From: a virus
Lineage: Duplodnaviria; Heunggongvirae; Uroviricota; Caudoviricetes
Strand: one strand, 5' to 3'
DNA length: 64,000 nt
IMG/VR virus record: IMGVR_UViG_3300010401_000032
Coordinates: 26,145-90,144 of that record
Shown: piece after piece, positions 926-37,308 of the stretch
How positions within the stretch are numbered: position 1 is the stretch's first letter
Layout of the letters: every line of letters begins with the position of its first letter
Notes under the pieces: generated by a model
The model's input: only the letters and a program-made list of their open reading frames with translations
Database searches by the model: none
What the model was told of the DNA's origin: nothing
Made by a program: the position numbers and the translations under genes

Positions 926-937
926 TCCGAAATCGGC

Positions 938-966
938 TTGACAAAACTAGCGAAGAGCGGTATCAT
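938..966 (+). promoter_or_regulatory. sigma70-type promoter TTGACA-17-TATCAT
   Basis: TTGACA 938-943, 17-nt spacer, TATCAT 961-966; predicted TSS ~973. Confidence 0.6.
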
Positions 967-972
967 GTACCT

Positions 973-1320
973 GATCGAAGCGGGGAAACTCAGTTACTTC
1001 ATACTTTGGCTGAAATGTGGGGCAACCCACTATCTGAGTCCAGTATTCTCGATCATTACAATATAAGTCGATGCGGGTGAAACGGTTACTTCGGTTTAGT
1101 GAGGCGAAAGCTTCGGCAGGTTCAAATCCTGCATCCGTCCACAGTATTCTCGACTGTTCTTTAGAATACCATCGATGCGGTAGATACAGTTACTTCCATG
1201 TTAAGGACGTGATGAAGGTTCGAGTCCTTCTAGGTCGCGTAAGTGGCCTATAGCTTAATGGCAAAGCACGTAATAATACTGTTCTTATATTCTCGGTGGG
1301 TTAACCTCCTTTTGAAAGAA
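973..1320 (+). ncRNA. structured tRNA-like noncoding RNA upstream of rsr (Y-RNA-like candidate)
   Basis: About 350 nt with no ORF, between a consensus promoter and rsr. Nested stems GATCGA(973-978)/TCGATC(1048-1053), AACTCAG/CTGAGT, and GTGGG-GCAA-CCCAC. Tandem duplicated modules (1041-1140 and 1141-1245) each begin CAGTATTCTCGA...TCGATGCGG...GTTACTTC and carry a canonical T-arm (GCAGG-TTCAAAT-CCTGC; GAAGG-TTCGAGT-CCTTC). A tRNA-like 5' half (GTGGCCT..GCTT-AATGGCA-AAGC) sits at 1248-1275. Confidence 0.45.
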
Positions 1321-1325
1321 GTAAA

Positions 1326-2855
1326 ATGGCTTTAAATAAGAAAAGACAAACGGTAGCAACTCGGGCGAAGCCTCACGTTAACCATGAGGGCGGAATTTCT
1401 TACGATATTAAGGATCCGTTTACTCAGTTACGTATCGTGGCCACGTCTTGTTTCTTTGGCGAACCGGCCTTCTACGTTAGTGGCGAAAGTAAAAAGTCCC
1501 CTTCTTTTGCCATATATGACCATCAGCGTCTTTACACCGAGGAAGGATATGGCAAGTCACTACTGCCGATCTCAAGAAATAAGACTACTCGCCAACTGAT
1601 GGAAGCCGCGATTGATGCGGCTTTAAATGTAGATATCGAACGCACTCTGCAATTTGCGGTAGAACTTCGCCGCGATTGGAATATTCGGGCAACGCCGCAA
1701 GTCATCATGGTTCGTGCTGCGATGCACCCGAAGATCAAGAATACCGGGCTTTTAAAGCTTTATTCGGACAGCATCATGACTCGCCTTGATGAAGTCATGA
1801 ATCAAATGGCGTACTTTGAATCTGTACAAGGCTCGCTTAAGCGTATTCCAAGCCGCCTCAAGAGAGTTTGGGCCGCTCGCCTTTCGCAAGCGAATGAGTA
1901 CGAGCTTGCGAAGTATAAGATGATGGATCGCAGCGTCAATGTATTTGATGCCGTGAGACTAACTCACCCAAACGGTGAAGCTATCGATAAGCTAATTGAA
2001 GGTAAGGTTTCTCTTTCAAATGAGAATACTGAAACCTGGGAATCGATTCGTTCTGGCGGTGGCACCTGGACCAACGCCGCGAAAGTCATGGGTCATATGG
2101 CCCTGTTGCGTAATCTTCGCAACCTACATGAGGATGGATCTCTTTCCGATAAGCTGTTAGATAAGCTGCTCGACGGGGTAGAAAACGGCAAGCAACTTCC
2201 GTTTAGATATTTTTCAGCTTTTAAAGCTATTGGTGCTCAAAGCGGTAAGGTTGCGGACACGCTAGAAGAATGCCTTGAACGCAGTATTAAATACTCCGTC
2301 CCTCGTTTCGAGGGACGAGGACTGACAATTTGCGACGTGTCTGGATCGATGGACGGCGGCAGAATCAGTGAAAGTAGCGACATGACATTTAAGGAAATTG
2401 CAGTACTTATGTCGGCCGTTACTACTAGAGCGTTCGAAGATGGCGGGGATACCTTGCTATTCGCAAGTACAACTGAATTCTACGAGCCTCGCCGCAAGAC
2501 TTCCATCTTTACAGAAATGGAAAAGATGTTTGAAGCTGGAAATCGTCTTGGAGGCGGCACGAACATCGTTAATGCCTTCTACGAAATCATCAAACACAAA
2601 AAGAAGTATGATACGATCTTCGTGTATTCCGACATGCAATGCGGATACGAAACGAACGTTCCGAAGCTTGTAAAGGAATACAGACAAAACGTCAATCCAG
2701 ACGTACAAATCTTCTTTGTGAATCTCGCCGGCTATCAAGACGCCCTCGTTCCTGAATTCTTTGAGAATACATATCTTTTAGGAGGCTGGAGCGACAAGAT
2801 GCTGCAATTCGCAGATAAGATCATTGGCCTGACGACCAATGAAAAAGTCATATAA
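1326..2855 (+). CDS. rsr: Ro60/Rsr orthologue (TROVE domain + C-terminal vWA domain)
   Basis: 509 aa; C-terminal vWA MIDAS motif CDVSGSM (DxSxS) preceded by a long alpha-rich TROVE-like region; size and architecture of bacterial Rsr. Confidence 0.75.
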   Translation: MALNKKRQTVATRAKPHVNHEGGISYDIKDPFTQLRIVATSCFFGEPAFYVSGESKKSPSFAIYDHQRLYTEEGYGKSLLPISRNKTTRQLMEAAIDAALNVDIERTLQFAVELRRDWNIRATPQVIMVRAAMHPKIKNTGLLKLYSDSIMTRLDEVMNQMAYFESVQGSLKRIPSRLKRVWAARLSQANEYELAKYKMMDRSVNVFDAVRLTHPNGEAIDKLIEGKVSLSNENTETWESIRSGGGTWTNAAKVMGHMALLRNLRNLHEDGSLSDKLLDKLLDGVENGKQLPFRYFSAFKAIGAQSGKVADTLEECLERSIKYSVPRFEGRGLTICDVSGSMDGGRISESSDMTFKEIAVLMSAVTTRAFEDGGDTLLFASTTEFYEPRRKTSIFTEMEKMFEAGNRLGGGTNIVNAFYEIIKHKKKYDTIFVYSDMQCGYETNVPKLVKEYRQNVNPDVQIFFVNLAGYQDALVPEFFENTYLLGGWSDKMLQFADKIIGLTTNEKVI

Positions 2856-2858
2856 AGA

Positions 2859-3476
2859 ATGGAAGCCCATTGGAAAGAACTACTCGCCATCCTGAATTAT
2901 CAGGATGGCGAATCTATTTTAGACGTTGGTGGGGCCATGGATCCCGTACCTATAGCAGACCAAGTGATTGATATCATGAATCTTAATAGGGGTGGGAAAG
3001 CCTATACGCTTCTAGATTTATGCTGTGACGAATTTCCATTCGACGATAAATCGTTTGACATCTGTATTTGTTCTCAAACGCTAGAAGATCTTGCCTCACC
3101 ACGATTAGCCCTGAGAGAGATGGCTAGAGTTTGTAAACGCGGAATAATTGAAGTACCGCATCGTGGTCCAGAATCAATTAAAAACACATATTCTTTACAT
3201 GGCAAAAAACCAGATTGGGCTATGGATGAAACGTGGTGTTTCGGAACAGAACATCATAAGTGGCTAATTGAAGTCATAGACAATAAATTAATATTTACAG
3301 TAAAAAACTACTTACATCTAATGTACAACCCAATTCCACAATGGAAAGGACCCGGAGGAATTCGTTTTGTATGGTACGACACAATTCCGCATAATGTTAT
3401 GTATGACATCCATCCAGAATCTATGTTTGCGAACTATCAAGATTTTCGGGAACGCTCACGGTGCTACTGGGAATGA
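2859..3476 (+). CDS. class I SAM-dependent methyltransferase
   Basis: Motif I ILDVGGA; motif FDICICSQTLEDL; 4 nt after rsr in the same frame. Confidence 0.55.
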   Translation: MEAHWKELLAILNYQDGESILDVGGAMDPVPIADQVIDIMNLNRGGKAYTLLDLCCDEFPFDDKSFDICICSQTLEDLASPRLALREMARVCKRGIIEVPHRGPESIKNTYSLHGKKPDWAMDETWCFGTEHHKWLIEVIDNKLIFTVKNYLHLMYNPIPQWKGPGGIRFVWYDTIPHNVMYDIHPESMFANYQDFRERSRCYWE

Positions 3477-4077: not shown

Positions 4078-4341
4078 GTGGCCCTGGCTTGCTTTTGCAG
4101 CCATTTGTATTATAATCTGGTACATAAAATGACCGAACATAACTCAGACATTAATATTGGAAGCAGCTTTCTCCCATCGCTTCTTCTGGTACTTTTCATT
4201 GGCCTCAAGCTGACTCATCATATTGATTGGTCGTGGTGGTGGGTCCTCTCGCCCGCTTGGATTCCACTTGTCATTTGCGTTTGTGCAATCATCGTCGTAT
4301 TCATGATCGTTGGATTTGATAGTACTTTGCGGAGCAAATGA
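4078..4341 (+). CDS. small membrane protein
   Basis: 87 aa, two TM-like segments; stop overlaps next ATG. Confidence 0.3.
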   Translation: MALACFCSHLYYNLVHKMTEHNSDINIGSSFLPSLLLVLFIGLKLTHHIDWSWWWVLSPAWIPLVICVCAIIVVFMIVGFDSTLRSK

Positions 4342-4739
4342 ATATTCTGATTCTGGAAGACAATCCAAATAGGATCGAAATATTCCTATTGGCACTTTCT
4401 AAGGACAATGTAATCACCATTGCAGAAACAGCCCAAGAGGCTATCGATCTAATAGCCCTAATGTCATTCGATGTTATTTTCCTGGATCATGATCTTGGAC
4501 TTCAACAATACGTCAGTGAAGATCTCGAAAATACGGGCAGTGGCGTGGTTCGATGGATGCTAGAGAAAAAAGAGTATTTGCTTGATCCGCATGGGCCACT
4601 GATTATCGTCCATTCACAAAACGAACCAGCCGCAAAGTCCATGGAATCAAAACTACAATCTGCCGATTTTAACGTTCGCAGGGTATCGTTCTATAGTCTA
4701 TGTAAGAATAATTTCAATGAAGTGCCTAATACTAGGTGA
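4338..4739 (+). CDS. stand-alone receiver (REC/CheY-like) domain protein
   Basis: ILILEDN (acidic pair), FDVIFLDHDLG (phospho-Asp position), downstream Ser and Lys in REC order. Confidence 0.45.
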   Translation: MNILILEDNPNRIEIFLLALSKDNVITIAETAQEAIDLIALMSFDVIFLDHDLGLQQYVSEDLENTGSGVVRWMLEKKEYLLDPHGPLIIVHSQNEPAAKSMESKLQSADFNVRRVSFYSLCKNNFNEVPNTR

Positions 4740-5445
4740 CGTACACTGCGAGTGGGATCATTTGAACGCGACCATTGCGAAGGCTCTGCGTCGTCACCCG
4801 GATATTACGCATATTGTCCAAGTGGGCGATTTTGGCTACGGCTGGCCGCAGACCAAGCCTTTCAAGATCAGCCATGGCTATTACGAGACGGACGAACTGT
4901 TTGAACGAGCTTTAAAAATGCCGTTCTTCTGGCTCGATGGAAATCACGAGAACCACGATCTATTGGAAGCCGATCATGGTGCTTCTCAATCGAACACGTT
5001 CTATTGCCCACGTGGCAGCGTAATCGAATTCAAGCTTCCTACCCGCGAGGTCCGCCGAGCGATGTTCTTTGGCGGTGCGTCATCCATTGATAAGAAGTAT
5101 AGAATCGAAGGTGTCACGTGGTGGCCGCAGGAGAGTATCACTTACTCCCAGACCCAAAGGGCAATCGAAAGCCATAATGAAGTGGATATTGTGTTCTCGC
5201 ACGAGCGTCCATCCGCATTCAATTACAAGCACAATTTCAAAGAAGGCTTCGGAGAATCAGACAAAAACGCTCTAGAGGCAATCAGAGAAGTCTTTAAGCC
5301 ACCGTTTTGGTGCTTTGGTCATTATCATGATTACGACAGAGGCGAACATGATGGAACTCAGTGGGTATGTTGTCCAATTATAGACGATCGCAGTTATACA
5401 ATATGGGATGGAGATTCGTTAGAATATTACCCAAATAATGGATAA
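4717..5445 (+). CDS. calcineurin-like metallophosphoesterase
   Basis: Motifs LILGDVHC, VGDFGYG, GNHENHD, FGHYH (GDxHG/GDxxD/GNHE/GH). Confidence 0.7.
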   Translation: MKCLILGDVHCEWDHLNATIAKALRRHPDITHIVQVGDFGYGWPQTKPFKISHGYYETDELFERALKMPFFWLDGNHENHDLLEADHGASQSNTFYCPRGSVIEFKLPTREVRRAMFFGGASSIDKKYRIEGVTWWPQESITYSQTQRAIESHNEVDIVFSHERPSAFNYKHNFKEGFGESDKNALEAIREVFKPPFWCFGHYHDYDRGEHDGTQWVCCPIIDDRSYTIWDGDSLEYYPNNG

Positions 5446-5866
5446 GTCTCCAAAACGAATATTACTATTTCTTAAGAAGTTTTACAAGACTTCTAAATGT
5501 TGGATATGGACAGGAGCAGTCAATAGTTGTGGTTATGGAAACTTTTGGGACGGCGAACACTACTGCAATGCTCATAATTATTCGTACAGATTATTTGTTG
5601 GTCCTATTGAAAAAGGACTGCATGTAGATCATTTATGTAGAAATAGAATATGTGTTAATCCAGATCACCTAGAGGCCGTTACACAAAGAGAAAATCTGTT
5701 ACGTGGAAATACACTAGTCTCAAAAGAGAGTAAACAGACTCATTGTATTAACGACCATGAATTCAACTTTAAAAATACATACATCGATAAAAGAAATAGA
5801 AGACATTGTAGAAAATGTAGATGTATAAGATTAAAAAAGCATAGAAATAGAAATAAAAATGATTGA
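5438..5866 (+). CDS. HNH endonuclease
   Basis: [29 protein letters not shown] motif. Confidence 0.7.
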
Positions 5867-6374
5867 GTTTACTCAAGAAACGATTGATAAGCAAGATGCC
5901 CGCCGCTGTCCACTAGTTACGGTGGACATTATCATTGAAATTCTCGACTGGTTCCCATTGGCCATATTTGGGAATACACTGGAACCAATGAAGAGTCAAA
6001 ATGGCATCGTTCTCATTGAACGCAAGAATGAACCGCATGGGTATGCACTTCCTGGAGGTTTCGTAGATATCGGCGAAACTACCGCCGCAGCCGCCGCCCG
6101 CGAAGCTTTAGAAGAAACTCAATTGCATGTTACGCAATTGGAGCAATTTCACACTTATTCCGATCCGGCCCGCGATGCACGTGGGCACGCAATTAGCATT
6201 GTCTATATTGGTAAAGCAATCGGGGAACCACTAGCAGCAGACGATGCTAAAAACGCATTTATTATTAACCCGGCACAAATGGGCGACTGGAACACAAAAG
6301 AACTATGTTTTGATCATCGTCAAATTCTAACCGACTATTTAATTTTCAAACAAACTGGAAAGCGACCACTATGA
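5859..6374 (+). CDS. Nudix hydrolase
   Basis: Nudix box [24 protein letters not shown]. Confidence 0.7.
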
Positions 6375-6679
6375 TTATTACTGGCCATATAAATATAGAA
6401 ACGGCTAGAAAGGATACTGACCTTAATGGCAATCCTCTTGAGGATGGCATGGTATCAGAATGGGCCATGGCAATTACATTAGCTCGATATAAAATTGGAG
6501 AAGAAGTAGAGCAAGAGGAGCTTGAAAGACAATTAGAACTTGCTCGCACACAACAAATACTTGATAAAATGATTGAAGATGGTTTAATAGATCAAGTTTG
6601 GAGTGAGGAAAAACAAGAGTTTGCTTACAAGCTTACTGAAAAAGGCGTAAAGGCGGCAGAGGATATCATTCATGAGTGA
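6371..6679 (+). CDS. hypothetical acidic protein
   Basis: 102-aa ORF, overlapping start/stop with neighbours. Confidence 0.4.
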
Positions 6680-8093
6680 GTTTAATTTAATTGCCCACGG
6701 CACAGATTCATATAAGGGATCTCACTGGAATCTATATCCGCCCGGAACCGAAATTGTATATTCATATTGCGAACCCCGTAAGGGAGCACGCTTTGGTCCT
6801 ACTACATTCTTCGGCTTGCAATACATTTTAAAGAAATATTTGACGGGTCAAGTTGTGACTCGTGAGAAGATCGAAGAAGCCGCTAAACTATATGCGGCCC
6901 ACTTTGGTAATGATAAAATATTCAATCGTGAAGGCTGGGAATACATTCTCAGTGCTTATGGCGGATTACTTCCCGTTCGCATTAATGCTATTCCAGAAGG
7001 TACGTCGGTCAAAACCGGTACTTGTCTTTTCACAATAGAAAATACAGATCGTAAGGTTCCTTGGCTTACTAATTATCTTGAAACGCTTTTAATGCAAGTC
7101 TGGTCGCCAATTACCGTTTGCACAAGTAGTCGTCAGATTAAAGACATTATTTCTGGATATCTAGATCTTACTGGCGATTCTGCCGGCCTATCTTTTAAGC
7201 TTCACGATTTTGGTTATCGTGGTGTTTCTTCTGTAGAAACCGCCGCTCTTGCTGGAGCCGCACATCTTGTGAACTTCAAAGGCACGGACACCATGGCTGC
7301 ACTCGCATTAGTGAGAGATTATTATCACGAACCCATGGCGGGCTATTCTATTCCAGCCACAGAGCACAGCGTCATGACCGCCGAAGGTCCCGAAGGTGAA
7401 GTTAATATTGTTCGCCGTATATTGGCGACTTATCCAACAGGATTGGTCGCCATGGTAATCGACTCTTTCGATACATTTAATTTTATCGAGAATGTAATTG
7501 GCGGTAACCCCGACATCCTATCGGCGATTCGCAATCGCCAAGGCACGGTAGTATTCCGGCCCGACAGTGGTAAGCTTCCCGGTATCGATCTAGATGTCTT
7601 CCACTCACTTGCGAAGGTATTTGGAGTTGAAAGGAATTCAAAGGGATTCGACGTTCTTCCTTCGCAAGTGAGAATGATTCAAGGCGACGGCATCAAATGG
7701 CTTGAGCCTCGCTTTAACGAAGATTCGCATCACAGTGTGAGCGATATTCTGGAACTATTTCACACGAATAAAATCTCTGCCGACAACATTGCATTCGGCT
7801 CAGGTGGCGGATTGCTCCAAAGCTTCAATAGAGACACACAGCGATTTGCTATTAAATGCTCATGGATGCAAGTAAATGGCCAGCCTCGCGACGTATACAA
7901 GCAACCTTCTACAGATAAGGACAAGACTTCAAAAAGAGGAAGACTGGTTGTAATTCAAGACGACGATGGTAGCATCTACACGTTGCCGGAAGGAAGCGGC
8001 GGCAAGAATATACTTGAAGAAGTTTTTATGAACGGCTATCTTGTACGCGACCAGACTTTCGAAGATATCCGCGAAAGGGCTACGCTATGTTAG
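6672..8093 (+). CDS. nadV: nicotinamide phosphoribosyltransferase (NAMPT/NadV)
   Basis: 473 aa; NAMPT-family length and motifs (FKLHDFGYRGVSS, GTDT). Confidence 0.8.
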   Translation: MSEFNLIAHGTDSYKGSHWNLYPPGTEIVYSYCEPRKGARFGPTTFFGLQYILKKYLTGQVVTREKIEEAAKLYAAHFGNDKIFNREGWEYILSAYGGLLPVRINAIPEGTSVKTGTCLFTIENTDRKVPWLTNYLETLLMQVWSPITVCTSSRQIKDIISGYLDLTGDSAGLSFKLHDFGYRGVSSVETAALAGAAHLVNFKGTDTMAALALVRDYYHEPMAGYSIPATEHSVMTAEGPEGEVNIVRRILATYPTGLVAMVIDSFDTFNFIENVIGGNPDILSAIRNRQGTVVFRPDSGKLPGIDLDVFHSLAKVFGVERNSKGFDVLPSQVRMIQGDGIKWLEPRFNEDSHHSVSDILELFHTNKISADNIAFGSGGGLLQSFNRDTQRFAIKCSWMQVNGQPRDVYKQPSTDKDKTSKRGRLVVIQDDDGSIYTLPEGSGGKNILEEVFMNGYLVRDQTFEDIRERATLC

Positions 8094-19604: not shown

Positions 19605-19691
19605 GCCGGTTTGGCTCAGTAGCGACAGCACCGCTTTTGTAAAGCGGCGAGAGAAATCTCCTCGGGGGTGCGAGTCCTCCAATCGGCTCCA
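19605..19691 (+). tRNA. tRNA, anticodon TGT (Thr-like), carrying a type-II-like extra arm with GAAA tetraloop
   Basis: Acceptor GCCGGTT/AATCGGC. D-stem GCT/AGC. Anticodon stem CCGCT/AGCGG, loop TTTGTAA. Variable arm GAGA-GAAA-TCTC. T-arm GGGGG-TGCGAGT-CCTCC. CCA encoded. Confidence 0.5.
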
Positions 19692-20962: not shown

Positions 20963-21731
20963 AACATCGTTTGATTTTGATGATGAATTAGCTATCGCAA
21001 AACAATATTGCGATGTAAAAGAATATCGTAGTCAGTGCGGTAATGATCTCGTAGTTGGTCGTTATTCAGTTTTACCATACTATAGAGAGCTTGAAAAAGA
21101 TCTGGCGTCGCACAACGCCAAACTAATCAATAGTTATGCGGAGCATAGATGGATCGCCAACTTTGATTACTACGAAACTTTGCATCAATATACGTTTCTA
21201 ACCTGGACAGATGATAACTTCTATAAATGTCCTATAAATGGACCGTTCGTAGTTAAAGGACGAACAAACTCTAGAAAGCATCAATGGAAAACTCATATGT
21301 TTGCCAAGGATAAGGAGGCGGCAATAAATATTGCAAATGAGTTAAACAACGATCCGCTATTAGGCGAGCAGGGAATTTTATATCGCGAATATATTCCATT
21401 AGAGGTCTTTGAAGTAGGAGTTAACGATATTCAATTTACGAACGAATGGCGTTTCTTCTTTTTCAAGCAGAACATACTTACTTATGGATATTATTGGTCA
21501 CAAGCGGATAAAGCAGACGAATATAAGATTCCAGAAGGCGGTATAGAGTTTGCACAAACAATAGCCAATGCGATTGGAGATAACGTTCAATTTTTCGTTG
21601 TCGATATTGCTAAGACGCTGGCTGGCGAATGGATTTTAGTAGAACTTAATGACGGTCAAATGTCCGGGCTTGGAATGGCAAGTCCGCATGACCTATATAG
21701 AAATCTTGCAAAAATAAACACTCCAGGGTAG
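20946..21731 (+). CDS. ATP-grasp-fold enzyme (substrate unknown)
   Basis: C-terminal FFVVDIAKTLAGEWILVELNDGQMSGL typical of ATP-grasp Mg/ATP-binding end; YREYIPLE motif. Confidence 0.5.
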   Translation: MQVLFRTSFDFDDELAIAKQYCDVKEYRSQCGNDLVVGRYSVLPYYRELEKDLASHNAKLINSYAEHRWIANFDYYETLHQYTFLTWTDDNFYKCPINGPFVVKGRTNSRKHQWKTHMFAKDKEAAINIANELNNDPLLGEQGILYREYIPLEVFEVGVNDIQFTNEWRFFFFKQNILTYGYYWSQADKADEYKIPEGGIEFAQTIANAIGDNVQFFVVDIAKTLAGEWILVELNDGQMSGLGMASPHDLYRNLAKINTPG

Positions 21732-21810
21732 GCGACGTTGGTAAAGCCATTTGACTGTTAATCAAACGCGAGCAATCGCACCGTGGGTTCAATTCCTACC
21801 CCTGGAGCCA
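21722..21810 (+). tRNA. tRNA, anticodon GTT (Asn-like), with type-II-like extra arm (GCGA-GCAA-TCGC)
   Basis: Acceptor TCCAGGG/CCCTGGA. D-stem GGC/GCC, 12-nt loop. Anticodon stem TTTGA/TCAAA, loop CTGTTAA. Extra arm with GCAA tetraloop. T-arm GTGGG-TTCAATT-CCTAC. CCA encoded. 5' end overlaps stop of upstream ORF. Confidence 0.5.
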
Positions 21811-21898: not shown

Positions 21899-21990
21899 GC
21901 TTTCGTGTATCGAGTCCGGCCGAAGATACTTCGCTCTTAACGAAATGTGGGCAACCACCATCCCAGGTTCGAATCCTGGCGAAAGCACCA
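21899..21990 (+). tRNA. tRNA, anticodon CTT (Lys-like), with type-II-like extra arm (GTGG-GCAA-CCAC)
   Basis: Acceptor GCTTTCG/CGAAAGC. D-stem TATC/GATA, long D-loop. Anticodon stem (C)TTCG/CGAA(A), loop CTCTTAA. Extra arm with GCAA tetraloop. T-arm CCAGG-TTCGAAT-CCTGG. CCA encoded. Confidence 0.45.
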
Positions 21991-25934: not shown

Positions 25935-26297
25935 GGGCGAGTATTTCATTAAACACTGGCCAAGCTCGATCGGCTGGCTTGCGTTAAATGCTCCACTAGA
26001 AGTCCTCCACTGTATTGATATTTTAAGCACAGATTATCAATGGATAGCTAGGCAATATGATCTGCTTAAAACAGAGTATAATCTGGGTCTAAAGTATTAT
26101 TCTCCAAATTAAATGTCCGCTGTTCCCGATACCGGTCTTCTAAACCGATGGCTTTAAATAATTGGGTGGAGCCGTAATGTTCAATTCATTCAGCGGATGC
26201 CAATATAGTCTAATTAATTAGATTTCTGTAGACCGACTAAGACGTTAGGGGTGTACTATCCATAGGGTAGATCCTACATCTTAGAGGAGGAAATCTA

Positions 26298-29853: not shown

Positions 29854-30015
29854 ATGAAAGCACAGAAATTTAAACTAATCATCGAAAGCGATAAAAAGAT
29901 CACGACGAGTGATGTCCTTGATTTACTTCAAAAGCACCTCCAGGTCACAATCACCTCGTTAGCGGTAGTCGACTGGGACACGAAAGAAGCAGAAGGGATC
30001 TATTCACTAGAATGA
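29854..30015 (+). CDS. small hypothetical protein (53 aa)
   Basis: ATG 29854; stop TGA overlaps ATG of RNA ligase (ATGA). Confidence 0.3.
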   Translation: MKAQKFKLIIESDKKITTSDVLDLLQKHLQVTITSLAVVDWDTKEAEGIYSLE

Positions 30016-31082
30016 GCGATCTATTAGTTAGAGTAGTAAAAGTAGACGAAGTGAATCGGCATCCGAATGCTGATAAGCTTGAAATAGTTAAAGTTGGAGG
30101 CTGGCAGATTGTGTCTGGCCTTGGCAATTACAAGGTCGGCGATCTAGTGGTTCACGTGCCGCCCGAGTGTCTCGTGCCCAAAGAGTGGGCCGATAAGTGG
30201 TCCGTGACTCCCTATCTATCGTGGAAGTCCAACGCGGCCAAGGGCAGAGTGAAGGCGGTAAAACTTCGCCAAGCGGCGAGCTATGGATTTCTAGCTCCCA
30301 ACGAATCTGGAGCGGAAATTGACACAAACGTTGCCGACTTCTATGGAATTGAGAAATACGAAGAGCCCGAACCGCTCGATTTTGGCCAAGCGGCCCGTCA
30401 ACATCCATACTTCCATAAATACACTGATATTGCGAGCCTCCGGAACTTTCCAAAAAGCTTAAAATATGATGAACCAGTTTGGGTAACTGAAAAGCTGCAT
30501 GGAACAAACTCAAGGGTCGGATGGATAAAATCTCAAGATGAAAATGGGACCCCATACCTTGAAAAAGTCATCGGCACTCATCGCACTCAGCGTAAACTTG
30601 AGAATGCCGGTGTCTATGGGCTGCCGTTTGAATTATACGGCGACGGGCTTGAAAAAGCGAAGAGCTTAATAGAAGACGTAATGAAAACGCCGATAGATTC
30701 AATTATTTTCTTTGGCGAAATCTTTGGTCCCGGCGTTCAAGATCTACAATACGGTCTAAAAGACAAGGACTGGAGACTATTCGATATTGCTGTAAATGGC
30801 GAATATTTTCCTTATGACTACATAAGAGAGGTTTCTAGTCAGTGCAATATACCGATCGTGCCTAATTACGCTCCCTATATGTACAGCTTTGAGCAATTGT
30901 GCGAACTAGCAGAAGGTAAATCCGCATTAGCGGAAGGACAAATAAAAGAAGGTATTGTGGTCCGTCCAATGCGAGAACTTACATGGGGAAAGGGTGAACT
31001 TGATCCCAATCCAAAACGAATGATTTTCAAGCTTATAAACTCAGATTACCTATGCCGAAAAGGCGGAACAGAAAAACACTAA
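30012..31082 (+). CDS. RNA ligase (Rnl2/Rnl5-like nucleotidyltransferase) with N-terminal tRNA-binding OB (EMAP/Myf-like) domain
   Basis: N-terminal VVKVDEVNRHPNADKLEIVKVGGWQIVSG resembles the MetRS/PheRS-beta tRNA-binding domain; ligase motif I KLHGTN. Confidence 0.65.
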   Translation: MSDLLVRVVKVDEVNRHPNADKLEIVKVGGWQIVSGLGNYKVGDLVVHVPPECLVPKEWADKWSVTPYLSWKSNAAKGRVKAVKLRQAASYGFLAPNESGAEIDTNVADFYGIEKYEEPEPLDFGQAARQHPYFHKYTDIASLRNFPKSLKYDEPVWVTEKLHGTNSRVGWIKSQDENGTPYLEKVIGTHRTQRKLENAGVYGLPFELYGDGLEKAKSLIEDVMKTPIDSIIFFGEIFGPGVQDLQYGLKDKDWRLFDIAVNGEYFPYDYIREVSSQCNIPIVPNYAPYMYSFEQLCELAEGKSALAEGQIKEGIVVRPMRELTWGKGELDPNPKRMIFKLINSDYLCRKGGTEKH

Positions 31083-31177
31083 TATGCATGACGAAAAGCG
31101 ACCTGTCCCGAGAGGCAGGAGAATTGTAAAGGCTGGAATAGTCGGCCTCGTAATTATCCTAATTATTATCATCGGAA

Positions 31178-31402
31178 TTGATAACGACCTGTTCGAGGGA
31201 TTCGATGATTGAACTACTAAAAGATCCGCGTTATCTTTGGTTTTTATTTAACTGCCAATTACTTGGATTAAACTTTGGACTTCTTATATCGTCATTCTTT
31301 AAACACGAGTACGTCTTTATTGCTATTCTCGCCCTGGGAACAATAGCTGGAATATATAATGTCATTGTTTCGAGAGCAAAATGGCTTAATTCATATGAAT
31401 AA
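31178..31402 (+). CDS. small membrane protein
   Basis: 74 aa, two TM segments. Confidence 0.3.
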   Translation: MITTCSRDSMIELLKDPRYLWFLFNCQLLGLNFGLLISSFFKHEYVFIAILALGTIAGIYNVIVSRAKWLNSYE

Positions 31403-31583
31403 CATATTCATCAAACTTTTCGTGGTGCTAATTATAGTGCCAACATTAGCATTCGTGGGCATCGACGCCGGATTTTGGCTACTTAATCAGCCGTCCGACC
31501 TAGCGGACTTCGGCGGTTTAATCGTTCTCTTTATCACCGCAATCTCCTGTTTTTCAATTTTAAGGAAAGTATTTAAGCAATGA
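31359..31583 (+). CDS. small membrane protein
   Basis: 74 aa, two TM segments. Confidence 0.3.
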   Translation: MSLFREQNGLIHMNNIFIKLFVVLIIVPTLAFVGIDAGFWLLNQPSDLADFGGLIVLFITAISCFSILRKVFKQ

Positions 31584-32428
31584 AAGCATTTTTCACATTT
31601 CTAACCGTTATCAGCCTTTGTGCATGTACTAAGGTTGAACCGGGATATGTCGGCATTAAAGTTAACCAATACGGAAGCCAGAAGGGCGTAGAGGATTTCC
31701 CTATGCAAACTGGTATGGTATGGTATAACTTCTTTACAACAGAAGTATATAAGTGGCCTACCTTCCGCCAAAATATCATTTGGACAAAGGGTCACGACGA
31801 AGGCTCACCGAACGACGATAGTATTACTTTCAATTCTATTGAAGGCTCTGTTGTCAACGCAGACATTGGCCTTTCGTATTCTCTTCGTGCAGCAGAAGTG
31901 CCCCTCGTTTTCGTAACTTTTAGACAAGATATCGAACATATCACTCATGTCTATATTCGCTCCGAAGTACGAGACGCTATTTCACGTCATGCCAGCACTA
32001 TGAAGGTTATCGACATTTTCGGCTCGAAAAAGCAAGAGCTACTTGAAGCCGTCAAGCGAGACCTCAATGAGCATCTTGGTAAGGTTGGCTTTGAATTTGA
32101 AATGGTGTCATTTATTGGTGGATTGCGTTGCGACGAAAACGTTATGACATCGATTAATGCAACAATCCAGGCTACTCAGCTTGCTATTTCTGCTCAAAAT
32201 AAGATTGTACAATCTAAGGCCGAAGCCGACCAAGCAATTGAACGTGCTCGCGGCGAAGCTCAATCTATCATCGCGGTCGCCAAAGCACAGGCCGAGGCCA
32301 ATGATCTAGTTAATAAGTCCCTCACGCCTAATCTAGTACTATGGCGTGGAATAGATAAGTGGAATGGCACTGCACCGCAAGTACTTGGTGGAAATCTGCC
32401 GATACTGACCATGCCGGTTAAACAGTGA
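31580..32428 (+). CDS. SPFH/band-7 (HflK/prohibitin-like) domain lipoprotein
   Basis: N-terminal signal with LCAC lipobox-like Cys. Central SPFH-like region and C-terminal coiled coil (QSKAEADQAIERARGEAQSIIAVAKAQAEAN). Confidence 0.55.
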   Translation: MKAFFTFLTVISLCACTKVEPGYVGIKVNQYGSQKGVEDFPMQTGMVWYNFFTTEVYKWPTFRQNIIWTKGHDEGSPNDDSITFNSIEGSVVNADIGLSYSLRAAEVPLVFVTFRQDIEHITHVYIRSEVRDAISRHASTMKVIDIFGSKKQELLEAVKRDLNEHLGKVGFEFEMVSFIGGLRCDENVMTSINATIQATQLAISAQNKIVQSKAEADQAIERARGEAQSIIAVAKAQAEANDLVNKSLTPNLVLWRGIDKWNGTAPQVLGGNLPILTMPVKQ

Positions 32429-32513
32429 AAGTACTGGACAACTACAACCTTTAAATCACTATTTTCAAAATTTCTGTTTACAGTCCTCTAAATAGCGTCA
32501 TAATAGAACTATC

Positions 32514-32888
32514 ATGGCAACACAACTAACACTAGAAAACTTTACAAAAGAAACCGGCCTGAGATTTCGTGTCTCGTTAGCTCAACAACAAGCTATTAAA
32601 AGCGGTACGTTAACACGCGAGCAGGCTTTTAATGACTTCCTAGCAAATGGCGGTCTCGAAAAATTGAAGAACAAGAGTCGTCCAGAAGTACCGGATGAGG
32701 TCTACCATATGGATGGCCTTACGCTGGAAAACTTCGGCGAGTTCGTAGAGAAGAAGATCGGCGTCAGTCGTCGCTTCCGCGTATCCCGCGAACAAGCAAA
32801 GCGTATTGACGAAGGTACATTAACACGTGAGCAAGCATTACAGGAAACTATTGCCGCAAAACGGCAGGAAATGGCTAACAAAGTATGA
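32514..32888 (+). CDS. hypothetical protein with internal duplication
   Basis: Two repeats ...TLENF..FRVS..Q...GTLTREQA. Confidence 0.4.
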   Translation: MATQLTLENFTKETGLRFRVSLAQQQAIKSGTLTREQAFNDFLANGGLEKLKNKSRPEVPDEVYHMDGLTLENFGEFVEKKIGVSRRFRVSREQAKRIDEGTLTREQALQETIAAKRQEMANKV

Positions 32889-33280
32889 GTAATTTGAATT
32901 CGGTAGTACTACAGGGGCGTCTCACTGACAACCCCACTATTCACGGAGCGGAGCAAAACGTTGCACGATTTACATTGGCCGTAAATGACGGCTTTGGTGA
33001 AAAAGAAGAAGTTTCTTTCATCGATTGTGTTGCGTTCGGCAAGCAGGTTCCCGTAATCGGTAAGCACCTTGTAAAAGGTAAGCAAATCGTTGTTCGTGGC
33101 AAGATTGTTCAAAATCGCTGGGAAACGCCAGAAGGTGGGAAGCGTTCCAAGCTAGAAGTCAGACTAGAGAATTTCGAAGGCTTCTACTTCATCGGTCAGA
33201 ATAAGACTGGCGAAGCGGCTTCGACGACACCGGAAGAGCCGGTCGCAGCAGAAGTTACAAAGGGCGAAAAGCTCTTCTAA
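32885..33280 (+). CDS. ssb: single-stranded DNA-binding protein
   Basis: OB-fold SSB pattern VVLQGRLTDNP...RFTLAVN...FIDCVAFGKQ...VVRGKI..RWETPEG. Confidence 0.65.
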   Translation: MSNLNSVVLQGRLTDNPTIHGAEQNVARFTLAVNDGFGEKEEVSFIDCVAFGKQVPVIGKHLVKGKQIVVRGKIVQNRWETPEGGKRSKLEVRLENFEGFYFIGQNKTGEAASTTPEEPVAAEVTKGEKLF

Positions 33281-33334
33281 TTAGCCTTTTTCATCATATC
33301 AAGGGCCAGCGGTAAAGTTTTTTACTGTTGGCCC

Positions 33335-33362
33335 TTGACATTATGTAAAGGTGTGCTATACT
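33335..33362 (+). promoter_or_regulatory. sigma70-type promoter TTGACA-16-TATACT, leaderless to ATG 33369
   Basis: TTGACA 33335-33340, TATACT 33357-33362, ATG 6 nt downstream; preceded by 10-bp inverted repeat 33301-33336. Confidence 0.55.
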
Positions 33363-33368
33363 ATAGAG

Positions 33369-33836
33369 ATGAAGCTAGTTATTCTACGTGGACCTAGTGG
33401 GTCGGGCAAGAGCACAATAAGTGGACATATTTGGTGGAATATTATTCCTAAGGAATGGAGCGTCGTACACGAAGCTGATCAATTCTTTACTAAGACACTA
33501 GGGAGTGGAGATACATACAAATTTAACCAAACAATGCTCTCGAAGGCTCATGACTGGTGTAGATTAAACGTAGAACGAAGCATGTATGTAGGTGAAAACG
33601 CAATTGTTGCTAACACAAACATGAGCCTTCGAGAGATCGAGCCCTATATCGAGCTAGCAGACCAATATAATTACGAAACAGAGATTTGGCGTACTCCAGG
33701 CCCGTGGGATCCCGAAATACTTTTCCAACGGAACGTTCATAATGTTCCGTTGGAAGTGCTCAAGCGACAAATCGCCCGCTATCAACCTCATGCAGAAGAA
33801 AAGGAATGGTCGGACTTGACCATATTCAATGCTTAA
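33369..33836 (+). CDS. polynucleotide 5'-kinase (T4 Pnk kinase-domain-like), kinase domain only
   Basis: MKLVILRGPSGSGKST P-loop; VANTNMSLRE and NVPLEVLKRQIARY match T4 Pnk ISDTNLNPE / VPIDVLRSMYKSM. Confidence 0.6.
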   Translation: MKLVILRGPSGSGKSTISGHIWWNIIPKEWSVVHEADQFFTKTLGSGDTYKFNQTMLSKAHDWCRLNVERSMYVGENAIVANTNMSLREIEPYIELADQYNYETEIWRTPGPWDPEILFQRNVHNVPLEVLKRQIARYQPHAEEKEWSDLTIFNA

Positions 33837-34116
33837 TGCTCAAAATAGTAAGTGCTGGACATGTCTCCATGGTATTTGCTTACAAGAAAGTGAACAAGAA
33901 GAAATCAGTGGTATCCCGATAGAAGATGACGGCGAGCAACAAAAATATCCGTTCGCTATCGATGATCAAGACGAGGAAAACGAAGAGGAAGAGGGCAGTG
34001 CTATAATCGAAAGGGCACGAGTCAAGGCTATTTGTTTCTGGCGTCCGGAAGGTCTACAGTCACCGCCTATTCTTGTTGGGCAAGTAAAGGAATGCAGTAG
34101 ATACGAAGCAAAATGA
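33829..34116 (+). CDS. hypothetical acidic protein
   Basis: 95-aa ORF. Confidence 0.35.
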   Translation: MLNAQNSKCWTCLHGICLQESEQEEISGIPIEDDGEQQKYPFAIDDQDEENEEEEGSAIIERARVKAICFWRPEGLQSPPILVGQVKECSRYEAK

Positions 34117-34556
34117 TTACATCATTTCATACTCCTGAAACAGAATTCTTAAGTAATTTCTATCTTTGTTGCGTGCCGTATGAGGGTTTCATATATCCGT
34201 CAGCAGAAAACGCTTATCAAGCTGCCAAGACTTTAAATATAAAAGCCAGAAGTGCATTTACTCTTGAAGAAATGACTCCGGCTATGGCGAAGCACTTGGG
34301 TAAAATCATAAAGATTAGATCCGATTGGGACCAAGAGAAACTCCAGGTCATGTGGGATATCTTAAGTTCTAAGTTTGAAGATCATGATTTGAAGCGACTA
34401 TTACTAGCAACTGGTGATCAAGAATTAGTAGAAGGAAACAATTGGGGAGATGTATACTGGGGAGTATGTAAAGGTAAGGGTGAAAATAATCTCGGAAGGC
34501 TTTTAATGAATCTCCGTAAGAAACTCAACGATGAACAGTTCACTAACAATCTGTAG
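34113..34556 (+). CDS. NADAR (YbiA-like, DUF1768) domain protein
   Basis: FLSNFY..EN.YQA.K...W....ELVEGNNWGD.YWGV...GENNLGRLLM pattern of NADAR family. Confidence 0.65.
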   Translation: MITSFHTPETEFLSNFYLCCVPYEGFIYPSAENAYQAAKTLNIKARSAFTLEEMTPAMAKHLGKIIKIRSDWDQEKLQVMWDILSSKFEDHDLKRLLLATGDQELVEGNNWGDVYWGVCKGKGENNLGRLLMNLRKKLNDEQFTNNL

Positions 34557-35775
34557 CCAGATAAGAGATGCGGGAGGCACTCCGTACATAGTCGGGGGCT
34601 ATGTCCGAGATACGATCATGGGCAAGTGTCCGAAGGACACTGATATTGTCGTAGTTGGTTTTAGCTTTCCTCAACTAACTAATCTATTTGCAGCCAGTAA
34701 GATTATTGGTAAAGATTTTCCGGTAATACAGGTAGACGGAATTGAAATTGCACTAGCTAGAAAAGAAAGAAAAATTGATACTGGCCATACCGGATTCATA
34801 TGTGACACGCTAGGGGTTTCGCTGGAAGAGGACCTATTCCGCCGCGATTTAACTATAAATGCGATGGCAATGGACCCGTTCACGGAACAAATCACGGATC
34901 CATTTGGAGGAAGGGCGGATATCAATAACAAGATGATCCGGCCGGTCAGCATCCATTTCAAGGAAGATCCACTTAGGGTTTTACGAGCAGCACGATTTGC
35001 AGCACAATTCGATATGGATCTCTGCTTGCAGGTAAGCATAATGGCACAAGAGATGATGGCCGAGCTAACTACACTGACACCTGAGCGTGTTTGGGGAGAA
35101 ACTCTAAAGGCTCTCAAAACCGACAATCCTCAACGCTTTTTCGAAGCTTTGAATGAGATGGAGGTTTTGGAGATTGTATTCCCCGAAATCGCCGCACTCA
35201 AGGGACGCATTCAGCCGGAGAAGTATCATCCGGAGGGTTGCGTATTTACGCATTTCTTACAGGTGTTAGAACGTGCTAGAAATTTAGGTGCCGACGAAGA
35301 AACAATGTTCGCCGCCATGTGTCACGATCTAGGTAAGGCTGTTACTCCAGATGAGGATCTTCCTAGACATATAAATCATGAAGCGTTGGGAGTGCCGATC
35401 GTTGAAAGTCTTTGCGAAAGATTGAAAATTCCCAATTCTTTTAGACATGTGGCCGTGCTAACAGCTAGAGAGCATTTAAACATACATCGTTTTCAAGAAT
35501 TGAAGCCCGTAACTCAGGTACGTCTTATTACTAGACTTAATGGTATTCATGATGACATTACTCTAAAAAGGATTTGTATGGCATCTATGGCAGATGCTAG
35601 AGGACGTGGACCAGTCTATTGGAATAAAGAATATCCACAAGCAGATGCAGTATTAAAAGCGGCAGAAATTATCCGGTCCGTTCGTGGCGACCAATTTGCA
35701 CATTTAAAGGATGGCAATATTATCGCTCAAAAATTAGAGCAGGCGAGAACAAAGGCACTTGGATCCACTAGATAG
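34531..35775 (+). CDS. cca: tRNA nucleotidyltransferase (CCA-adding enzyme) with C-terminal HD domain
   Basis: Head-domain motif YIVGGYVRD-x8-DTDIVV (GGxVRD..DxD); length 414 aa. Confidence 0.7.
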   Translation: MNSSLTICSQIRDAGGTPYIVGGYVRDTIMGKCPKDTDIVVVGFSFPQLTNLFAASKIIGKDFPVIQVDGIEIALARKERKIDTGHTGFICDTLGVSLEEDLFRRDLTINAMAMDPFTEQITDPFGGRADINNKMIRPVSIHFKEDPLRVLRAARFAAQFDMDLCLQVSIMAQEMMAELTTLTPERVWGETLKALKTDNPQRFFEALNEMEVLEIVFPEIAALKGRIQPEKYHPEGCVFTHFLQVLERARNLGADEETMFAAMCHDLGKAVTPDEDLPRHINHEALGVPIVESLCERLKIPNSFRHVAVLTAREHLNIHRFQELKPVTQVRLITRLNGIHDDITLKRICMASMADARGRGPVYWNKEYPQADAVLKAAEIIRSVRGDQFAHLKDGNIIAQKLEQARTKALGSTR

Positions 35776-36241
35776 ATTTTGGATAAAAGTTAATAAGAAC
35801 TCTGGTACATTCGGAGCAAATGGACTATTTGAAACCGAATGTTGGGAATGGACTGCAAGTTTAACTGCCAAAGGTTATGGAAGATTTTGGCCAATTGGTA
35901 GACGCGGTTATCATGCACATAGATATTCTTGGATTATACATTTTGGAAAAATAGACGACGAAGTAAACGTTTGTCATAAATGTGATAATAGAAAATGTAT
36001 ACGACCAGATCATTTGTTTATAGGAACGCAAATAGAAAACATTAAAGATATGGACCTTAAGGGCAGGCGTCAACCAGCTAGAGGCCCGTCTCACGGGAAT
36101 GTTAAATTAACTCCAGGTGAAGTTCTTACAATTCGTTCGCTATGGCCAAGTACAAGATATTGTGATATAGCTCGTGATTTCAATATTAGTCATGGAACAG
36201 TAATGGATATTGTTAAACGACGCAGTTGGAAACACATATGA
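35759..36241 (+). CDS. HNH endonuclease
   Basis: HAHRYSW..NVCHKCDNRKCIRPDHLFIGTQIEN. Confidence 0.7.
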   Translation: MDPLDRFWIKVNKNSGTFGANGLFETECWEWTASLTAKGYGRFWPIGRRGYHAHRYSWIIHFGKIDDEVNVCHKCDNRKCIRPDHLFIGTQIENIKDMDLKGRRQPARGPSHGNVKLTPGEVLTIRSLWPSTRYCDIARDFNISHGTVMDIVKRRSWKHI

Positions 36242-37308
36242 AGAATCCCATCCTTTTAAAGCAAATGCTAAAAGAGGTAGAAGCTGGAAATGTAACAGCT
36301 TCGAAGTCTGGGGATCTAACTATATTCAAGTACTCACAGGACTGTCATATAGAAGGTAGATGGAATTCTGTCAACAGGATTGCCCGTGGCTTGATCATGA
36401 AAGACGATGGAACAATCGTCGCTCGACCATTTGCTAAATTCTTTAACCTTGGTGAAGTAGCCGAAACACAAATAGGCGAACTCCCGTGGAGTGAGTCTGT
36501 TGAAGTCTACGAAAAGGTAGACGGAAGCTGCGGGATTGGATACCTAGATCAAGACGGATGCTGGAAATTGGCAACTCCTGGGAGTATGGAATCTACACAG
36601 GCAGTTGAAGGTACTCTAATACTGCGTCAGATGTATAGTAAAGGTTTACAATTATTACCACGTGATTGTACTCCGGTATTCGAAATTATATTTCCAGCGA
36701 ATAGAATTGTTGTCGACTATAAAGGCGAAATATTTCTAGCTTTGTTGGCAATATTCGAAAAGAACGGCGAAGAGTGGCATCCTCGCCGCGTCGATCAAAT
36801 TGCTCAAGCCTGCGGCTTTCGCAGACCTAAGCGTTATGATATTGACCTACGCGGAGACATTCCGTTTAATGACAATGAAGAGGGCTACGTTGCTCGCTTT
36901 GAAAGTGGTCTCCGCGTAAAGGTCAAGTCTCCTGCGTACTTAAGAGTCCATAGACTCTTAAACTACATGAGTCCTAAAGGCGTAATCGAATTGATACGCG
37001 GGAAAGAATACGGCGTTACTCTATTACAACTGCCGAAGGGAATCCAACAGGACTTTGACGACATTAGGGCATCGGTTCAAAATTCATACGATGCTCTAAA
37101 GATATCGGTCGAAGACGTAGCACGTCGTATACCAGACGGCGACCGCAAAACAAAGGCCCTATGGATCCAAGCTAACGCTCCAAACCGCCTGAGCGGGCTA
37201 GTATTCGCCTCGATGGATGGCAAGTCCATCGAAGATAAGCTCTGGAGAATTGTTTCGGACGATCTTAAAGAAAAAACAGCACCTATTATTTCGCAGGAAG
37301 CGATATAG
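36226..37308 (+). CDS. ATP-dependent RNA/DNA ligase-family nucleotidyltransferase (Rnl1-like)
   Basis: Motif I EKVDGS (KxDG), motif IV EGYVAR, motif V KVKS. Confidence 0.55.
   Translation: METHMKNPILLKQMLKEVEAGNVTASKSGDLTIFKYSQDCHIEGRWNSVNRIARGLIMKDDGTIVARPFAKFFNLGEVAETQIGELPWSESVEVYEKVDGSCGIGYLDQDGCWKLATPGSMESTQAVEGTLILRQMYSKGLQLLPRDCTPVFEIIFPANRIVVDYKGEIFLALLAIFEKNGEEWHPRRVDQIAQACGFRRPKRYDIDLRGDIPFNDNEEGYVARFESGLRVKVKSPAYLRVHRLLNYMSPKGVIELIRGKEYGVTLLQLPKGIQQDFDDIRASVQNSYDALKISVEDVARRIPDGDRKTKALWIQANAPNRLSGLVFASMDGKSIEDKLWRIVSDDLKEKTAPIISQEAI

Follow-up and report, generated by a model that had tools for sequence, protein, structure and literature searches.

Two Y RNAs, YrlA and YrlB, lie 5' of rsr, the gene for the Ro60 orthologue Rsr, in Mycobacterium smegmatis, where they are cut from a single precursor and YrlB carries a T-arm only (PMC4201824). 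The Ro60 protein of the Thermus phage phiLo (PDB 9KOP and 9L5Y) binds two upstream Yrl RNAs as well as host PNPase in vitro (PMC12135203), and three very highly transcribed regions are found within 2 kb upstream of the Rsr-like gene of Listeria phage CKA15 (PMC12282133). A functional model is provided by Yrn1/Yrn2, Rsr and PNPase of Deinococcus radiodurans (RYPER), where the Y RNA tethers the Rsr ring to the exoribonuclease. An Rsr-Y RNA-PNPase machine is also known from Salmonella Typhimurium, and YrlA is recognized by tRNA enzymes (PMC4201824). Here, we analyze a locus of this type in a virus of the Caudoviricetes, contained in a window of 64,000 nt (positions 26,145 to 90,144 of the IMG/VR record IMGVR_UViG_3300010401_000032; coordinates below are those of the window). 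With a probability of roughly 0.8, the region represents a phage Ro60/Rsr ribonucleoprotein locus in which one promoter drives a precursor where three Y-RNA modules in tandem precede the rsr mRNA. It comprises the following features:

938..966, + strand: sigma-70-type promoter-like site, TTGACA (938-943), 17-nt spacer and TATCAT (961-966), from a pattern scan
973..1054, + strand: M1, Y-RNA-like module of 82 nt, from repeats, motif scan, covariance model R1 and homologous modules
1066..1155, + strand: M2, Y-RNA-like module of 90 nt, from repeats, motif scan, R1 and same-class modules in relatives
1170..1298, + strand: M3, YrlA-type Y RNA module of 129 nt, from a sub-threshold Rfam YrlA match, R1 and covariation
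1326..2855, + strand: rsr, 509-aa predicted Ro60/Rsr orthologue (TROVE HEAT-repeat ring and vWA domain)

Similar to YrlA (RF02553; Chen et al. 2014, PMC4201824), M3 adjoins rsr on the same strand, within about 2 kb. The two share a stem formed by the 5' and 3' ends with a presumed Rsr-binding motif, a YUAY sequence, the permuted order of V, T, acceptor-like (AS) and D arms, tRNA-invariant nucleotides and a covarying Levitt pair, a signature reported earlier for YrlA (PMC4201824). M3 departs from YrlA in its 5' motif, which is YGA-NGCGG and not GNCGAA(N)G, in its longer stem 2 and in an AS hairpin of 8 bp with a GNRA loop. Having at least two Y RNAs side by side at rsr is a trait shared with YrlA/YrlB of M. 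smegmatis and yrlB-yrlA of Salmonella Typhimurium, and YrlB is similar to M2. Unlike those loci, the one described here has three modules (2-4 in close relatives and up to 6 in distant phage loci), a near-identical platform in all modules and a promoter set for a start at the first of them. In phiLo, too, a phage encodes the Ro60 and Y-like RNAs come from the non-coding sequence upstream of it, and the phiLo protein is the best PDB match in both sequence and fold. However, Rsr identity to phiLo is only ~22-27%, and the definition of the phiLo RNAs relied on CGAA motifs and RNAfold, with no tRNA-like domain reported, whereas a full tRNA mimic is backed by covariation here. The M2 elements follow each other as stem, hairpin, T-arm and stem, similar to the orientation that has been described for Yrn1 (PMC4201824). 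A sequence relationship between Yrn1/Yrn2 and the present modules is not detectable, and a PNPase partner of the latter is hypothetical.

As rsr-adjacent Y RNAs are known from M. smegmatis (one precursor) and phiLo (two RNAs), the organization seen here extends a known kind. A first-pass annotation of the sequence had suggested that the duplicated modules may be a new Y-RNA variant; the array does exist in the phage, but multiple Y RNAs at rsr had already been published (PMC4201824, PMC12135203). The novel elements are instead a phage branch of YrlA-like RNAs that stays below the Rfam threshold, and arrays of 3-6 modules, which are frequent in phage contigs. The earlier interpretation is otherwise supported as largely right, with three amendments: the modules number three, only one of them is a full YrlA-type mimic, and the methyltransferase gene following rsr is incidental.

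The Rsr protein and the layout of its locus

By its TROVE domain, the match of its homologue profile to known Ro60 structures and its predicted fold, the product of ORF 1326-2855 is a Ro60/Rsr orthologue, in keeping with the Ro60 architecture first assigned to this open reading frame (ORF). Pfam TROVE (PF05731) scored 32.9 bits against a cut-off of 23 and DUF7788 scored 34.5 bits (cut-off 27.1), while vWA_Ro60, at 26.1 bits, fell slightly under its cut-off of 27.7. The metal-ion-dependent adhesion site motif DVSGS, within DVSGSM, occupies residues 337-341, and PHROGs assigned the protein to phrog_850, 'RNA-binding protein' (E = 3.5e-41). A PDB search with the single sequence matched only phiLo Ro60 (E = 7e-22). 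A profile of 30 homologues retrieved phiLo Ro60 (9KOP/9L5Y) at 4e-37 and, at E = 2-3e-6, D. radiodurans Rsr (2NVO), Xenopus Ro60 (1YVP) and human RO60 (9NEN). The AlphaFold2 model (predicted local distance difference test score 80.9, predicted template-modelling score 0.79) gave the same picture when compared with PDB by Foldseek. The phiLo protein 9KOP was matched with E = 1e-18 and template-modelling (TM) scores of 0.69/0.75, followed by 2NVO (TM 0.55/0.57) and 1YVP/9NEN (TM 0.54-0.59) over ~500 columns, and vWA-domain structures were also among the matches.

The protein has more than 2,300 homologues, the nearest named phage protein being gp540 of Bacillus phage G (35% identity). Bacterial-genome Rsr proteins come no closer than ~42% identity. 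A DNA-level search of 50,697 phage records returned a 138-nt patch of the Bacillus phage G rsr as its sole match, and an exact-sequence protein look-up returned no record.

The promoter-like site at 938-966, which the first-pass annotation had regarded as a consensus promoter, matches 11 of 12 consensus positions. The bare pattern is not above chance, with 4 sites in 3 kb compared to 5.5 expected from shuffles. Its position is conserved: all 13 close homologous loci have a -35/-10 pair in front of the first module, with the end of the -10 element 5-7 nt (6 nt in 10 of the 13) 5' of the closing stem of that module. The -35 element reads TTGACA, TTGCCA or CTGACA in these loci, and the -10 element TATAAT, CATAAT or TATCAT. 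Given this spacing, the primary transcript would begin at the first base of M1, with a predicted transcription start at ~973.

The + strand leader between promoter and rsr spans 359 nt without a credible gene. Small mechanical ORFs at 938-1066 and 1071-1253 were not taken as genes, the equivalent region being left empty by gene callers in 9 of 10 close contigs. M3 ends 27 nt 5' of the rsr ATG on the same strand, and the spacers between M1 and M2 and between M2 and M3 are AU-rich and only 11 and 14 nt long. A terminator-like site was looked for between 966 and 1326 and none was found; together with the short AU-rich spacers, this makes co-transcription of the modules with rsr, and subsequent processing, the simplest reading.

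The modular nature of the leader is apparent from its repeats. Direct repeats TCGATGCGG..GTTACTTC start at 1068 and 1172, and this 104-nt spacing agrees with the two tandem modules of ~100 nt recognized in the first pass. The count was one short, as M1 (973-1054) shares the stem motifs without having a T-arm. CAGTTACTTC occurs three times (991, 1083 and 1187), and CAGTATTCTCGA is repeated at 1041 and 1142.

Past the modules and rsr, a perfect 12-bp hairpin, TCGCCATCCTGA-ATTA-TCAGGATGGCGA, is found at 2884-2911 (-22.2 kcal/mol) with a T-rich tract after it. It is located 29 nt past the rsr stop codon, within the first 20 codons of the methyltransferase ORF, and could be a terminator or attenuator of the Y-RNA/rsr transcript.

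Structure and conservation of the modules

The three tandem Y-RNA-like modules share a common platform, GA-NGCGG...GUUACUUC...AUUCUC. At the start of each, a stem strand of 6 nt terminates in GA; NGCGG comes next, then a short second stem and GUUACUUC. Each module ends in AUUCUC, the UC of which pairs, together with the next four bases, with the module start. The closing stems are GAUCGA/UCGAUC in M1, AGUCGA/UCGACU in M2 and CAUCGA/UCGGUG in M3, and they diverge from one another solely through compensatory changes. All three modules thus have their 5' and 3' ends paired beside a conserved internal loop, as is characteristic of the Y RNA class.

In M1, the closing stem (973-978 with 1049-1054) borders an internal loop containing AGCGG (5' side) and AUUC (3' side), and stem 2 pairs ACUCAG (989-994) with CUGAGU (1034-1039); both stems are backed by ten homologous modules. 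The module carries GUUACUUC and an apical GNRA-capped hairpin, GUGGG-GCAA-CCCAC (1017-1030), and is devoid of a T-arm. M2 has its closing stem at 1066-1071 and 1150-1155 and a stem 2 of ACGG (1082-1085) and CCGU (1135-1138). These enclose GUUACUUCGG, a hairpin GAGGC-GAAA-GCUUC (1101-1114) and a T-arm GCAGG-UUCAAAU-CCUGC (1116-1132), without a D-arm, so that M2 as predicted is a reduced tRNA-like domain with unpermuted order. The M2 class is also represented in loci L100, L128 and L129, where both the T-stem and stem 2 show compensatory changes. For the internal hairpin, RNAalifold favors an invariant UUCG/CGAA helix, while the GNRA hairpin shows compensatory changes among the four sequences, and our drawing of the latter is tentative.

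M3 is the most elaborate of the three, with V, T, acceptor-like and D arms nested inside the Y stem. Its closing stem (1170-1175 with 1293-1298) and stem 2 (about 1183-1189 with 1279-1284) are followed by the YUAY motif UUAC (1190-1193), which precedes a V hairpin (1195-1207) with the 7-nt loop AUGUUAA. The T-arm, GAAGG-UUCGAGU-CCUUC, occupies 1214-1230; an acceptor-like hairpin follows (1231-1250; 8 bp, GUAA loop), then UA (1251-1252) and a D-arm, GCUU-AAUGGCA-AAGC (1253-1267). Both T-arms noted previously (1116-1132 and 1214-1230) are therefore present, and what had been described as a tRNA-like 5' half corresponds to the acceptor-like strand and D-arm at 1243-1267. The tRNA-invariant nucleotides of M3 include A14, the GG of the D-loop and UUCGA of the T-loop. 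Only M3 has the full YrlA arm set (V after YUAY, T, acceptor-like and D), with every helix covarying, whereas M2 has the T-arm alone and M1 has none of the arms. These predicted features make M3 a YrlA-type circularly permuted tRNA mimic, and the Y-RNA/YrlA-like candidacy of the leader, with YrlA as its best Rfam match and a covariation-backed YrlA architecture, holds in full for M3 alone.

The V loop is 7 nt long in 39 of 69 aligned M3-type sequences, and 26 of those 39 read N-U-N-N-U-A-A, a pattern resembling an anticodon loop with U33 and U36-A37-A38. An interpretation of the V hairpin as an 'anticodon arm' was discarded, since it corresponds to the V stem-loop already described for YrlA by Chen et al. 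(PMC4201824). By analogy with M. smegmatis (PMC4201824), cleavage of M3 by RNase P is plausible given its 8-bp acceptor-like stem.

A covariance model, R1, was built from homologous M3-type modules and used to scan positions 700-1700 with filters off. It returned exactly three matches, all on the + strand: M3 (121.5 bits), M2 (29.9 bits, E = 8e-6) and M1 (28.1 bits, E = 1.8e-5); the next best scored 6.3 bits. RNAalifold predicted 32 pairs for 12 homologous M3-type modules, 23 of which had compensatory changes. Stem 2 of M3 (GAUACAG/CUGUUC) was preferred over the pairing UAAGGAC/GUUCUUA of the Rfam alignment, which was dropped, because only stem 2 covaries in the homologues. The larger M3 set, the 69 R1 matches with E ≤ 1e-5, also contains the Levitt 15:48 pair, with G15:C48 in 32 and A15:U48 in 29 of 66 sequences (61/66; Fisher p = 7e-17, uncorrected for phylogeny), and A14 is present in 66/66. 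For the non-YrlA modules, the stem parts of 25 M1-, M2- and short-type modules were aligned with MAFFT. Stem 2, which had no role in the detection of these modules, was 87% paired, with 3 of 4 pairs covarying.

Dedicated tRNA detection gave little in the leader. Neither ARAGORN nor the Rfam tRNA model made a call in 930-1325, and the sole tRNA-type match in a permissive scan was a weak tRNA-Sec match on M2 (16.2 bits, E = 2.1).

Several observations weigh against the reading of the region as a Ro60/Rsr ribonucleoprotein locus. The Rfam YrlA scan proposed in the first pass did return YrlA as the best leader match (1191-1305, E = 1.7e-4, full model length, 5' side partly mis-registered), but with 29.8 bits, well under the gathering score of 69. 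Neither the individual modules nor the leader as a whole had folding energies that differed significantly from shuffles (z = -1.5 to -2.1), so the nested helices expected from the start have strong covariation and unremarkable thermodynamic stability; the structural support comes from covariation, not from folding energy. The published GNCGAAN0-1G motif is represented by variants only (AUCGAAG in M1, GUCGAUG in M2 and AUCGAUG in M3), the family consensus at the 5' motif being GA-(U/A)GC(G/A) or AGUGA. The 99% pairing of the closing stem in the 25 non-YrlA modules is in part by construction, because module boundaries were picked by closing-stem complementarity. Similarly, the 69-sequence alignment was fitted to the model and its pair counts lean to structure, yet the margin is very large: 94.2% of cells were paired (shuffles, 61%; slid registers, 49% or less), double-sided changes were found in 32/32 pairs, and the covariation score was 0.83 against at most 0.15 in slid registers. 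The phiLo Ro60-Yrl complex attenuated, and did not stimulate, PNPase in vitro (PMC12135203). Finally, while the present data establish the identity of the protein, the structure and conservation of the RNAs, the position of the promoter and the genomic context, we infer transcription, processing, Rsr binding and effector partners from sequence.

Arrays in related loci and competing explanations

The locus was compared with 68 viral, 53 metagenomic and 80 bacterial genome loci, together with ten contigs encoding the closest Rsr proteins (59-73% identity). All 13 close loci have a gene-free gap 5' of rsr that holds 2-4 modules of the same classes, varying in number and order. Across 709 kb of rsr-centered loci, R1 gave 221 matches (E ≤ 1), all on the rsr strand. 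An independent regular expression (regex) combining the platform motif and closing stem, applied to 118 non-redundant loci, placed 131 modules on the same strand as rsr and 8 on the other. By this count, which gives lower bounds, at least one module was present in 50/118 loci, at least two in 38/118 and at least three in 21/118. Tandem arrays of 4-6 modules lie beside rsr in distant phage contigs (L032 4681-5580, L038 4597-5369, L085 1143-1964 and L060 1945-2939), and several of these modules are of the full YrlA type; the largest array, with six tandem modules, is that of L032. Arrays may be located 5' or 3' of rsr (downstream in, for example, L032 and L038), and ORFs are interposed between the modules in L130.

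Among the loci from bacterial genomes, 67 belong to the same Rsr clade (≤42% identity; taxa include Sorangium, Polyangiales and Lachnospiraceae). These mostly had one R1 match beside rsr, and none of them reached the Rfam YrlA threshold. In the R1 scans, arrays of 2-6 modules were almost entirely restricted to viral and metagenomic contigs. At the gathering threshold, Rfam found tRNAs and one group I intron, and no YrlA, in the window and 40 related loci. The phage branch of YrlA-like RNAs is thus visible only below the threshold or with a custom model. Three further observations were made in these loci. Odd Rfam 'tRNAs' of 133-135 nt, overlapping R1 matches, sit just 5' of rsr in Sorangium and Myxococcota loci (L167 2155-2289, L147 2174-2306). 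A group I intron (RF00028, 67.8 bits) is present at L012 588-802, in a tRNA-rich phage contig with rsr. The close relative L128 encodes a Thg1-family, tRNA-His guanylyltransferase-like protein (5967-6494) a few genes 3' of rsr.

The combined results suggest a model in which the single promoter at 938-966 would start a precursor at ~973 that includes the three modules and the rsr mRNA. Each module would offer Rsr a binding platform consisting of a 6-7-bp end-to-end stem, an internal loop (GA-NGCGG on the 5' side and AUUCUC on the 3' side), a second short stem and GUUACUUC, a putative counterpart of the GNCGAA(N)G / GGUCCGA motif contacted by Ro60 in known Y RNAs. The distal, presumably effector-facing domains would differ, M3 presenting a permuted tRNA mimic, M2 a hairpin and T-arm, and M1 a small GNRA hairpin. 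Judging from the systems of D. radiodurans, S. Typhimurium, M. smegmatis and phiLo, it is most likely that cleavage within the AU-rich spacers of 11-14 nt releases the individual modules and that the phage Rsr ring then binds and stabilizes them. Once bound, they would act as tethers between Rsr and either host exoribonucleases (PNPase, for example) or enzymes that recognize tRNA. During infection, the decay or quality control of structured RNA (tRNA, rRNA) would be reshaped, alongside the phage tRNAs, RNA ligases and CCA-adding-type enzyme. The effect may be to stimulate decay, to restrain it or to decoy tRNA-directed enzymes.

The strongest competitor to this model, although unlikely, is that the 359-nt region is not processed and acts as one structured 5' leader of the rsr mRNA, loading up to three Rsr rings and/or autoregulating translation or mRNA stability. 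The lack of a terminator-like site before rsr, the spacers of only 11-14 nt and the distance of only 27 nt from the end of M3 to the rsr ATG all agree with such an arrangement, and phiLo Yrl1, with two CGAA hairpins, is known to form higher-order Ro60 complexes (PMC12135203). A single leader does not, however, explain why every module is closed by its own 5'/3' stem with independent compensatory changes, or why module number (2-4) and order are free to vary among close relatives. Moreover, many arrays are located 3' of rsr (L032, L038), L130 has ORFs between its modules, and the upstream Y RNAs of M. smegmatis are processed from a precursor (PMC4201824).

Still less probable is a role of the tRNA-like modules mainly as decoys or sensors for tRNA-directed host defenses (anticodon nucleases, tRNA-modifying or -cleaving toxins), with Rsr just stabilizing them and no exoribonuclease tether. 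M3 mimics the tRNA elbow, its 7-nt V loop is anticodon-like (N-U-N-N-U-A-A in 26/39), and 20-21 tRNAs plus a tRNA-repair toolkit are typical of phages facing tRNA-targeting defenses (PMC7824862). This proposal is purely inferential, and it is at odds with M1 and the short modules, which have no tRNA-like part yet retain the Rsr platform, with the 30/69 sequences in which the V loop is not 7 nt long, and with characterized Y RNAs, which are tethers or gates for Ro60 (PMC4201824). That the region is a functionless set of decayed tRNA genes or chance intergenic repeats, to which T-arm and D-arm sequences in a tRNA-rich phage and weak folding z-scores might point, can practically be dismissed, as ARAGORN and the Rfam tRNA model are silent, the permuted arm order is kept with extensive compensatory change in 69 sequences, the motifs are confined to the rsr strand (R1) or distributed 131 to 8 (regex), and the positioned promoter is conserved.

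Genomic surroundings and biological meaning

Downstream of rsr, and elsewhere in the window, the following genes were assigned:

2859..3476, + strand: class I S-adenosylmethionine-dependent methyltransferase ORF, 205 aa (Pfam Methyltransf_11, E = 6e-9)
4338-4739: cREC_REC, also kept downstream of rsr in close relatives
4717-5445: metallophosphoesterase, also kept downstream of rsr in close relatives
5859-6374: NUDIX, also kept downstream of rsr in close relatives
6672-8093: NAMPT
30012-31082: RNA ligase (PF09414)
34531-35775: CCA-adding-type nucleotidyltransferase with an HD domain
36226-37308: Rnl1-like ligase

The methyltransferase ORF begins 3 nt past the rsr stop, which is in line with the linkage in one operon described originally. 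Its membership in a conserved operon was ruled out, since a tblastn search of 131 related rsr loci was negative for homologues throughout; a PHROGs search gave no match either. In close relatives, the place after rsr is taken by an AAA ATPase or by small ORFs, and the methyltransferase gene therefore lies outside the conserved unit. Judged by this comparison, it is incidental, and its linkage to rsr is peculiar to this phage. The gene order cREC-Metallophos-NUDIX 3' of rsr is, by contrast, conserved in close relatives.

The view of the genome as rich in tRNA and RNA-repair genes proved correct, with 20-21 tRNA genes in the window, two RNA ligases and the CCA-adding-type enzyme. The ligases and the latter enzyme adjoin the tRNA array, and a Band_7 protein is encoded in the same 30012-37308 region. 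With the cREC_REC, metallophosphoesterase, NUDIX and NAMPT genes, they make up a toolkit for RNA repair and NAD-related functions. The RNA-repair set matches the jumbo-phage RNA-repair repertoire reviewed in PMC7824862. The window also encodes rIIA-like and rIIB-like genes (10726-13672; phrog_612, E = 4e-125, and phrog_609, E = 7e-68), and is therefore from a large tailed phage. Within the tRNA array, a tRNA with a CUA anticodon at 16141-16217, labeled tRNA-Pyl by ARAGORN and of the amber-suppressor type, hints at stop-codon suppression or recoding. Three tRNAs, tRNA-Thr (19605-19691), tRNA-Asn (21722-21810) and tRNA-Lys (21899-21990), are unusually long for their isotypes (87-92 nt), which suggests inserts or long variable arms.

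The data bring to light a phage branch of the Ro60/Y RNA system that is missed by current Rfam thresholds, and the covariation-backed structure, the promoter with its predicted transcription start and the module boundaries described here are directly testable. The neighboring tRNA genes, RNA ligases and CCA-adding-type enzyme link Ro60 ribonucleoproteins to the contest between phage and host over the integrity of tRNA and RNA, and the modules constitute a compact set of natural variants for studies of Rsr recognition and of recruitment by the tRNA-like domain. The presence of at least three modules in 21/118 loci, and of up to six, suggests that Y RNAs have been varied by phages at their effector end. 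A bolder idea, which we put forward tentatively and consider rather unlikely, is that the Y RNA of large phages has grown into a modular array of adaptors, with 2-6 tandem modules that have one Rsr platform and differing distal domains (a full permuted tRNA mimic, a smaller mimic with a T-arm, or plain hairpins). If so, one phage Rsr ring may be steered in parallel to several enzymes of host or phage, such as PNPase, other exoribonucleases and tRNA repair or modification enzymes, or may serve in decoying tRNA-targeting defenses.

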